Sequence record: OR880647.1
Direction: 5' to 3' (one strand)
Length of the DNA stretch: 63,590 nt
Source of the DNA: Escherichia phage ECP2304
The notes below the pieces were generated by a model, which had not been told where the DNA came from, ran no database searches, and worked only from the letters and a program-made list of their open reading frames with translations. Both the position numbers and the translations under genes were made by a program. Positions within the stretch are counted from its first letter, which is position 1; the number at the start of each line of letters is the position of its first letter. Shown one piece after another: positions 30,625-31,332 of this stretch.

Positions 30625-31332
30625 ATGTCTGACATGACTCTTTTACCTACTAATCTCGGTGGCGACGGTTTCGGCGGTGAAGCTGGTGCGGCTGGTATCG
30701 GTGGTGCAATCGGTGGTTTAATTGGTTCCTGGATCGGTAATGGTTGGGGTGGTAATGGTGGTTGGGGTGGACGCGGTAACTTCGCTGGTCCGGTGGAAGT
30801 GCAAGCTTCTGTTGACACCAACGCAATTCTGCAAGCTATCAACAACGGTACTCTTCAGACCATTCAGGGGCAGAACGGTACTAACCTGACTGTTGAGCGC
30901 TCCGCTGCTTCTACCTATAACGGCATCACTCAGCAGAACACTCAGAACCTGCTGGCTTCCGTTCAGGGCTTTGCTGGTCTGAACACGCAAATTCAGAGCG
31001 GCACCAGCCAAGTGCTCGCGGCTCTGTGTAGCAACGAAGCGGCTAACATCACCCGTTCTTTCCAAGCACAGTTAGAAGCTCAGAAGTGTTGCTGCGAAAC
31101 CAACCTGAACATCGAGCGTCAAGCTGAAGCTACCCGTGCGCTGATCCGTGACCAGCACGCACAGGCGCAAGCAGTTCTGATCTGTGACCTGAAATCTCAG
31201 TTGCAGGAAGCTCGCTTTGCAAACTCTCAGTTGGCACAAACGGCTGGTCTTACTTGTAAGATCAATCAGGTTGAGCAGTTAGTTAACTTTAAACTGCCAA
31301 CTCCTCCAACTCCTCCGACTGGCTGCTGCTAA
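30625..31332 (+). CDS. hypothetical Gly/Trp-rich protein with CCC motif and PTPPTPPTGCC tail
   Basis: ATG 30625 after GGAG; capsid-like codon bias; follows tail fibre. Confidence 0.55.
   Translation: MSDMTLLPTNLGGDGFGGEAGAAGIGGAIGGLIGSWIGNGWGGNGGWGGRGNFAGPVEVQASVDTNAILQAINNGTLQTIQGQNGTNLTVERSAASTYNGITQQNTQNLLASVQGFAGLNTQIQSGTSQVLAALCSNEAANITRSFQAQLEAQKCCCETNLNIERQAEATRALIRDQHAQAQAVLICDLKSQLQEARFANSQLAQTAGLTCKINQVEQLVNFKLPTPPTPPTGCC

Follow-up and report, generated by a model that had tools for sequence, protein, structure and literature searches.

A predicted abundant glycine-zipper protein heads a four-gene accessory cassette in Escherichia phage ECP2304 and unrelated phage lineages

Escherichia phage ECP2304 (sequence record OR880647.1) is a coliphage of the genus Seuratvirus (Queuovirinae), and the whole stretch of its DNA analyzed here, 63,590 nucleotides in length, is referred to below as the window. 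This work concerns gene X, which follows a lateral tail fibre gene and encodes a homologue of the CAjan protein gp21 (98.7% identity). X leads a conserved four-gene cassette, in which X and a terminator are followed by three genes designated A, B, and C, and the sequence comparisons indicate that this cassette moves horizontally between unrelated phage lineages. The cassette behaves as an accessory element that natural phages retain and cultured ones can do without, possibly to their advantage. The X protein is probably not a part of the virion. As a tentative interpretation, we propose that it is an abundant, oligomeric helical accessory protein that would bind membrane interfaces, carry a thiol or metal switch, and act on the host envelope. 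Both X and the cassette are "hypothetical" in databases and match no characterized family or system among those searched, and no paper discussing either was found.

Results

The X family

X is a real gene rather than a chance open reading frame (ORF), as it has 170 close homologues and 124 cluster representatives in a profile search, including full-length relatives of 200-290 amino acids at about 30% identity, and a ratio of nonsynonymous to synonymous substitution rates (dN/dS) of 0.02-0.05 against four close relatives. Selection on X is strongly purifying. Multi-stretch matches to five proteins in the representative search (P0169, P0187, P0215, P0218, and P0229) were rejected as unrelated repeat or cytochrome proteins. 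The region of X is 95-98% identical to the corresponding regions of CAjan, SA126VB, slur01, and other phages. The ATG codon at 30625, with GGAG upstream at 30613-30616, is the true start, since MSDMTL(L/V/I)P is kept in relatives with unrelated upstream DNA. In some GenBank records the start of the X ORF is placed too far upstream.

X matches PHROG 9288, a family of "unknown function", over its full length (E = 1.3e-130, residues 1-235 against positions 1-233 of the 234-position profile); this membership is silent on mechanism. The preliminary description of X, made from the sequence alone, recognized no family, and the searches agree: X has no match in Pfam, NCBIfam, or PADLOC, none of 32 family members has a match in Pfam, and a PDB sequence search with X alone returned noise only. 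No statement on X was found in papers on 9g, BASEL, Seuratvirus, CAjan, PY100, and 9NA.

The family signature has seven parts: M-x-D/E-M-x-L-x-P, G-x3-GSWFGNG, QGFAGLN, CCC, ATRxL, (I/L)CDxK, and SQAAQT. The first of them, the N-terminal peptide, is matched by 112 of 120 homologues and retained in the relatives of about 30% identity, with M1, M4, L6, and P8 invariant in close homologues. QGFAGLN is nearly invariant and has a 22-residue repeat period in distant members, in which the Thr/Pro/Ala tail is variable. A curli-like nature of these QGFxGxN repeats, and a likeness of X to intermediate filaments or PspA, were considered as possible analogies.

The cassette and its genome positions

Among 22 loci from uncultured viral genomes (IMG/VR), homologues of A and C follow X in all and a homologue of B in 21; A also follows X in distant relatives, and C is also present in the PY100-like phage X1, in Sergei, and in 9NA. 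In Seuratvirus and Hanrivervirus the cassette follows the tail fibre gene; in the 9NA-like Sashavirus phages Sergei and 9NA it follows the large terminase gene (with a terminator straight after X in Sergei); and in the myovirus PY100 and likewise its relative X1 it is located among early genes, as ORF29-32. Its carriers include T1-like phages, and its order is kept in metagenome relatives of about 30% identity, where at the loci L031 and L033 it is not beside a fibre gene. In the T5-like Epseptimavirus, X occurs alone and is often decayed. Across the Seuratvirus, Hanrivervirus, Sashavirus, and PY100 lineages, the X proteins are about 60-85% identical.

The A protein carries His and acidic tracts (HHHEHEKEEYKHAHSYARDHEH here and DDDDDEEEDVEIHHHHHYHHGHH in Sergei, e.g. 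HHHHHYHHGHH) before a weakly MazG-like helical domain, and these tracts together with the AAAC(x)C motif suggest metal binding. The profile of the A family matches AF_0060 (2p06) with E = 0.0018 and 1yvw with E = 0.57, while its match to PRA-PH, at 16 bits, is below the cut-off of 21.3. Residues E85 and E88 are invariant, and the Asp of the second motif is not conserved in distant members. Searches of the cassette neighbours against Pfam, NCBIfam, and PADLOC, where run, detected no domain, PHROGs gave only families of unknown function, and neither X nor its three partners has a recognizable cytotoxic or immunity domain in the first three databases.

Since X travels with A, B, and C at unrelated genome positions, it is not tied to the tail fibre. 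The preliminary description had correctly placed X after the tail fibre gene; the preceding gene (28231-30453) encodes a lateral tail fibre composed of a phage_tail_N domain and a Peptidase_S74 intramolecular chaperone (residues 624-675). The functional link implied by this position and by the suggested adsorption phenotype is not borne out, as the genes that accompany X are the three downstream ones. A related proposal, found in some BASEL-derived annotations, is that X is an assembly chaperone of the lateral tail fibre. It draws on the adjacency of the two genes here and on "lateral tail fiber chaperone" labels in the GenBank records of KurtStettler and PJ16. In KurtStettler, however, the labelled ORF (bas22_0024, L002 4124-5656, 510 amino acids) is an in-frame fusion of a second fibre segment carrying S74 with X from about residue 20, and the label is explained by the S74 part of this fusion; in VogelGryff, the label sits on a different gene, located upstream. 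X itself has no S74 or Tfa-like domain in Pfam, and no homology to a characterized tail fibre assembly or structural protein was found. The upstream fibre carries its own intramolecular chaperone, and the cassette is not beside any fibre gene in Sergei, 9NA, PY100, X1, L031, and L033. The chaperone proposal is therefore largely refuted and very improbable. If the S74 domain of the KurtStettler protein self-cleaves, a fragment in which chaperone and X are fused would be released.

Loss in cultured isolates

Comparison of 9NA gp12-gp13 (L037 5959-6524) with Sergei gp19-21 (L038 4848-6507) revealed a clean deletion in 9NA, extending from residue 46 of X through all of A to residue 28 of B, with flanks 99-100% identical to Sergei. 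As a result, X residues 1-45 run out of frame into the middle of B in 9NA gp12, and gp13 is a remnant of B. The deletion looks like a recent event in a classic laboratory phage. VogelGryff has lost the C-terminus of X together with the downstream genes, SeppeHuegi and JakobBernoulli each have a Gln-to-stop mutation in X, the X gene of vaffelhjerte is a pseudogene, KurtStettler and SHIN8 have tail fibre-X fusions, and one further X-B fusion was found. X is thus dispensable in the laboratory, being deleted, nonsense-mutated, or fused in several cultured isolates, whereas an intact cassette is present in 21 of the 22 uncultured viral genomes.

Codon adaptation and expression signals

The codon adaptation index (CAI), computed with the Sharp-Li weights for E. 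coli, is 0.553 for X versus 0.534 for the capsid gene (14039-15100) and 0.447 for the tail tube gene. The only ORF of the window with a higher value is 43904-44704 on the minus strand (0.584), and another gene of the early region, 48339-49226 on the minus strand, has a value comparable to those of X and the capsid gene (0.538); both early-region genes are probably very highly expressed too.

The upstream terminator, which ends the tail fibre transcript, has an 8-bp stem with six GC pairs, a 4-nucleotide loop, and a T tract, with UUUUUAUU after the hairpin. Its fold of -14.1 kcal/mol (z = -2.8) is equaled by no shuffle, and equivalent terminators are found upstream of X in other phage lineages. 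Downstream of this terminator lies a candidate sigma-70-type promoter of X, whose exact hexamers, TTGTAA and TATGCT, are inferred; relatives have the near-consensus TTGTCA-17-TAGAAT at this position, and the promoter scan favored a weaker neighbouring match at 30524-30551. The promoter is followed by a stem-loop in the 5' untranslated region (5' UTR), which as a whole folds at -9.9 kcal/mol (z = -2.1). A stem-loop is found about 35-50 nucleotides before the X start in several lineages, its position kept and its sequence differing (loci L015, L020, L025, L029, L007, L006, and L016; e.g. GTAGC-nAGGG-GCTAC or GTAACC-AGTT-GGTTAC), among them T1-like, T5-like, and PY100-like phages. In general, such a conserved hairpin just after a promoter could serve mRNA stabilization or regulation, and that of ECP2304 is probably an mRNA-stabilizing element. 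The capsid and scaffold genes of this phage have a similar layout of promoter and hairpin.

Given a CAI above that of the capsid gene, a promoter of its own, and the 5' stem-loop, high abundance of the X product is a fair inference, in accordance with the capsid-like codon usage reported in the preliminary description. Of the two terminators that were said to bracket X, the upstream one is strong, and the downstream one, between X and A, is present and weaker: its hairpin folds at -17.5 kcal/mol with a z of only -1.3 and has a short U run, so it is probably leaky. The same position is annotated as a terminator in SA126VB and Sergei. A strong promoter and a leaky terminator followed by downstream genes are typical of an abundant "major" product with low-level partners.

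The glycine zipper and the N-terminal peptide

The Gly/Ala/Trp-rich N-terminal segment of the preliminary description was located at residues 12-49 (GGDGFGGEAGAAGIGGAIGGLIGSWIGNGWGGNGGWGG), and its glycine-zipper reading is sound. Residues G26, G30, G34, G38, and G42 are in register on one helix face, I25, I29, L32, I33, W36, and I37 are on another, and G27 and G31 are in register as well. In the distant alignment, G30 never varies, and conservation of G34 and G40 reaches at least 90%. The best 19-residue stretch of X has a Hessa insertion energy of +4.55 kcal/mol, compared with +0.4 to +0.5 kcal/mol for the holin and i-spanin helices of the same phage (+0.52 for the i-spanin), whereas the Wimley-White interfacial energy of the segment, -5.98 kcal/mol, is in the range of real membrane segments. 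By these scales, the segment scores as an interface-binding element and not as a translocon-type transmembrane helix; beyond residue 50 X has no hydrophobic segment.

The N-terminal peptide and the zipper bring to mind a bacteriocin-like or sensitizing effector, released at lysis and entering neighbouring cells by a TonB-box-like peptide and a glycine-rich translocation segment, as colicin M and pesticin do. MSDMTLLP and the following glycine-rich stretch bear a possible resemblance to the N-termini of pesticin (MSDTMVV...GSGG) and colicin M (METLTVHAP). The peptide is conserved across the family, a glycine zipper could form pores, and a protein as abundant as X is predicted to be would be released on lysis. 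Nevertheless, no cytotoxic, receptor-binding, or immunity domain was detected in X with Pfam, NCBIfam, and PADLOC, the glycine-rich segment differs from the translocation domains of colicins in its high sequence conservation, the match to the TonB box is imperfect (D-M-T-L-L-P versus D-T-x-x-V-x-A), and a virulent phage has no clear gain from such a protein. This explanation thus appears improbable. A double-glycine bacteriocin leader was also considered for X and rejected, as the hydrophobic pattern at -4/-7 does not fit by eye.

The helical region and similarity to influenza HA2

The glycine-rich segment is followed by the Q/N/T-rich region noted before; the whole protein has 25 Q, 20 N, and 20 T, together 65 of its 235 residues. 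An AlphaFold2 (AF2) monomer model built from a 23-sequence alignment has a disordered N-terminal third, a short helix at residues 23-33, and one long helix at residues 83-221, with predicted confidence (pLDDT) of 50-57 for residues 91-140 and 66-84 for residues 151-210. With its disordered N-terminus, single long helix, and mean pLDDT of 56, the model is unsuited to a fold search.

The X-family profile matches residues 1-88 of H1 influenza HA2, which span the fusion peptide and the first part of the coiled coil, with E = 4e-4 and 21.8-23.4 bits; in a local control, 5,000 full and 5,000 segment-preserving shuffles of the H1 sequence all stayed below the real score. The match favors a membrane-interface reading of the N-terminal segment. 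The similarity is specific to H1, with 10.0 bits (E = 5) for H3 HA2 and 2.2 bits for HIV gp41, which counts against a membrane-active reading of X and makes the likeness an analogy at best, possibly a coincidence, and not homology. By analogy only, the N-terminus and stalk of X may be seen as a functional counterpart of a fusion-peptide-like segment on a helical stalk. Like this class I fusion protein, X has a Gly-rich, Trp-containing amphipathic segment, then a polar helical stalk, and conserved cysteines. Unlike HA2, it lacks a C-terminal transmembrane anchor, a receptor-binding subunit, and a free N-terminus generated by cleavage, nine conserved residues preceding the zipper; its source is a tailed phage, and common ancestry is unsupported.

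The cysteines of X

X has eight cysteines, including the CCC triplet (C155-157) and the pair that ends the C-terminal PTPPTPPTGCC, both of which had been pointed out in the preliminary description and are present in the translation. CCC shows no variation in the alignment A1 and a conservation of 90% or more in A2, the distant alignment, and T170, R171, L173, and D188 are conserved in the same manner. C210 and the terminal CC are either both present (77 of 107 scorable homologues) or both absent (30), with no mixed case, a co-occurrence that suggests a shared disulfide or metal site, with a count perhaps inflated by shared ancestry.

These cysteines, together with the A protein, could also be explained if X were an intracellular thiol or metal scaffold that works with the His-rich A, sequestering metal or redox species or building a cytoplasmic assembly, with the glycine region serving self-association instead of membrane binding. 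In agreement with this, CCC is invariant, A has long His/acidic tracts and the conserved AAAC(x)C, its MazG-like fold keeps two invariant glutamates, and X has neither a signal peptide nor a transmembrane helix. On the other hand, no metal-binding family was matched, cytoplasmic coiled coils are usually highly charged and the helix of X is not, and membrane interfaces are the more usual setting for conserved Trp or Phe residues beside a glycine zipper. We regard a cytoplasmic scaffold as distinctly unlikely.

A small Cys-rich ORF located downstream of the cassette also contains a CCC triplet (its protein reads MCGNTNCCCLGS...QLAQAACNCKTFQPVAPTP...) and belongs to PHROG 25697. By tblastn it was found only at two loci, L008 and L009, of close Seuratvirus relatives. 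Its QLAQ..C.CK..Q motif and Pro-rich stretch resemble X residues 186-230 with a local alignment score of 43, which was reached by 11 of 2000 shuffles, and the ORF is a possible small-scale paralogue, or else a partner, of X.

Is X a virion protein?

A non-essential fibre or decoration of the virion, i.e. a trimeric coiled coil docked by its N-terminal peptide and cross-linked through cysteines after release, whose loss is tolerated or favored in laboratory stocks, would account for several of the above observations. X is of low charge and rich in Q, N, T, A, and G, with a long predicted helix; its codon adaptation is at the capsid level; in Seuratvirus, Hanrivervirus, and T5-like phages its gene closes the tail or tail-fibre operon; it can be dispensed with and has disappeared repeatedly from cultured isolates; and the coupling of C210 with the terminal CC fits disulfides formed outside the cell. 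However, X proteins of about 60-85% identity are encoded by phages with different virions, such as the contractile-tailed PY100 and the tailspike-bearing 9NA-like phages, and there away from structural genes, while a decoration protein is expected to co-evolve with its docking surface. X always accompanies A, B, and C and not head or tail genes. In the CAjan record several small proteins are labelled "structural protein" and gp21 is not, which is weak evidence; the labels presumably derive from virion mass spectrometry. A virion role is therefore considered unlikely.

The coordinates of gene X, its sequence elements, and the neighbouring features are given in Table 1.

Table 1. Gene X of phage ECP2304, its parts, and flanking features (positions in the window)
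Feature	Position	Strand	Basis
Strong intrinsic terminator ending the lateral tail fibre transcript	30471..30490	+	Terminator scan and folding
Candidate sigma-70-type promoter, TTGTAA-16 nt-TATGCT	30539..30566	+	Read from sequence
5'-UTR stem-loop, GUAACC-AGUU-GGUUAC	30574..30589	+	Folding, 6-bp stem
Gene X, 235-aa protein, CAjan gp21 homologue, PHROG 9288	30625..31332	+	ORF and translation
Conserved N-terminal peptide of X, MSDMTLLPT (family pattern M-x-D/E-M-x-L-x-P)	30625..30651	+	Alignments
Glycine zipper and aromatic segment of X, residues 12-49	30658..30771	+	Predicted interfacial membrane-binding/oligomerization element
Long low-charge Q/N/T/A-rich region of X, predicted alpha-helical, residues 83-221, including QGFAGLN	30871..31287	+	AF2
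CCC triplet of X, C155-157, followed by ATRxL and (I/L)CD (C187) motifs	31087..31095	+	Alignments
C210 and Pro/Thr tail of X, PTPPTPPTGCC, residues 210-235	31252..31329	+	Co-occurrence count
Weaker terminator between X and A	31346..31391	+	Folding
Gene A, His-rich protein of 122 aa; weakly MazG/HisE-like all-alpha domain at the C-terminus; AAAC(x)C motif	31404..31772	+	Profile, alignment
Gene B, 176-aa protein, beta-rich fold of no known type	31788..32318	+	
Gene C, 94-aa protein, predicted helical hydrophobic C-terminus	32305..32589	+	
Small Cys-rich ORF, 67 aa, CCC triplet, Seuratvirus-specific	32601..32804	+	PHROG 25697 "unknown function"

Genome surroundings

Positions 1-3695 of the window are identical to 59896-63590, so the window represents one genome of 59,895 bp plus 3,695 bp of wrap-around or terminal repeat, and the ORFs near both of its ends are duplicates. 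An ORF of 333 amino acids on the minus strand (27171-28172) separates the J-like tail tip gene from that of the lateral tail fibre; the BASEL paper assigns the true receptor-binding protein locus to this position. The gap 28107-28436 contains promoter-like sites in both directions. A lysis cassette at 7683-9325 on the plus strand encodes an endolysin, a holin with transmembrane helices (8328-8705), an i-spanin whose transmembrane helix is N-terminal, and an embedded lipobox-containing o-spanin (8963-9325, LMICAGC). For the related phage 9g, a complete lysis module was reported as not identifiable.

Discussion

The observations on X can be combined in a tentative scheme. According to its sequence, X would form an elongated alpha-helical oligomer, the glycine-zipper/Trp segment of which would bind the membrane interface and self-associate in the manner of fusion peptides and glycine-zipper toxins. 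The CCC triplet, C187, and C210 with the terminal CC would lock or switch this assembly by metal binding or oxidation. More speculatively, the His-rich A would be a partner in switching, and the target would be the host envelope: its inner membrane while infection is under way, or its periplasm and outer membrane after holin opening. The near-identity of X in unrelated virions and at unrelated genome positions makes the shared host (Enterobacteriaceae) a more likely target than the virion surface. A bolder and more doubtful version of this proposal is that X-A-B-C is an unrecognized accessory system, horizontally mobile among virulent enterobacterial phages, in which X is a soluble, massively expressed fusogen or disruptor, thiol- or metal-switched with the help of A, that would act after holin opening or on neighbouring cells.

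Several observations weigh against a membrane-active X. It has no signal peptide and no true transmembrane helix, which leaves access to the periplasm before holin action unexplained. The Pfam glycine-zipper models PF13488, PF13441, PF13436, and PF05433 do not match X at E <= 0.1, no family member matches such models at E <= 0.01, and no homologue with membrane activity was found among characterized families in Pfam, NCBIfam, PADLOC, and PDB. The AF2 model is weak (mean pLDDT 56, predicted template modelling score (pTM) 0.24), the heptad periodicity of the helix is weak as well, and the low-charge, Q/N-rich, Cys-containing composition also fits an extracellular fibre. B matches no known fold.

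Comparison with known systems defines the proposed envelope-acting protein further. Like the spanins Rz and Rz1, X is phage-encoded, helical, and cysteine-containing, with a proposed action on the envelope, and by analogy its Pro-rich tail recalls o-spanins. Unlike them, it has no transmembrane helix (+4.55 versus +0.5 kcal/mol) and no lipobox, is encoded outside the lysis cassette, and is far more codon-adapted. A spanin or holin identity was therefore rejected, given also the distance of about 21 kb to the lysis cassette and the lack of an o-spanin partner; this phage already has a complete spanin pair besides X. With a complete lysis cassette elsewhere, X is an addition and not core lysis machinery.

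In-register GxxxG repeats on one helix face are shared by X with the N-terminus of VacA, the SlyB/Pcp-type 2TM lipoproteins, and class II microcins. Repeated GxxxG motifs are associated with membrane insertion and homo-oligomerization. In contrast to glycine-zipper membrane proteins, X lacks a signal peptide or lipobox and combines its zipper in one chain with a helical stalk about 140 residues long and a cluster of cysteines. The T4 fibritin and the phi29 head fibre resemble X in being dispensable, well expressed (as predicted for X), elongated and helical, and encoded near tail or fibre genes, but they have no sequence similarity to X, which moves with A, B, and C between unrelated virions.

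Conclusions

By prediction, X ranks with the most highly expressed proteins of these phages, yet it and its partners have no assigned function and are lost repeatedly in the laboratory. Conservation together with laboratory loss points to a function in the interaction of the phage with its host or environment that is hidden under standard laboratory conditions. If X-A-B-C is indeed a mobile accessory system, its function would matter in natural hosts and be costly or useless in laboratory culture. The phages 9NA, VogelGryff, SeppeHuegi, and JakobBernoulli are natural knockouts and may differ from their wild relatives on natural hosts, which matters for phage therapy and phage collections; comparison of such knockouts with intact siblings makes the question of X directly testable. 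Its answer could bring to light a membrane-active mechanism, or a class of accessory systems, not described before.

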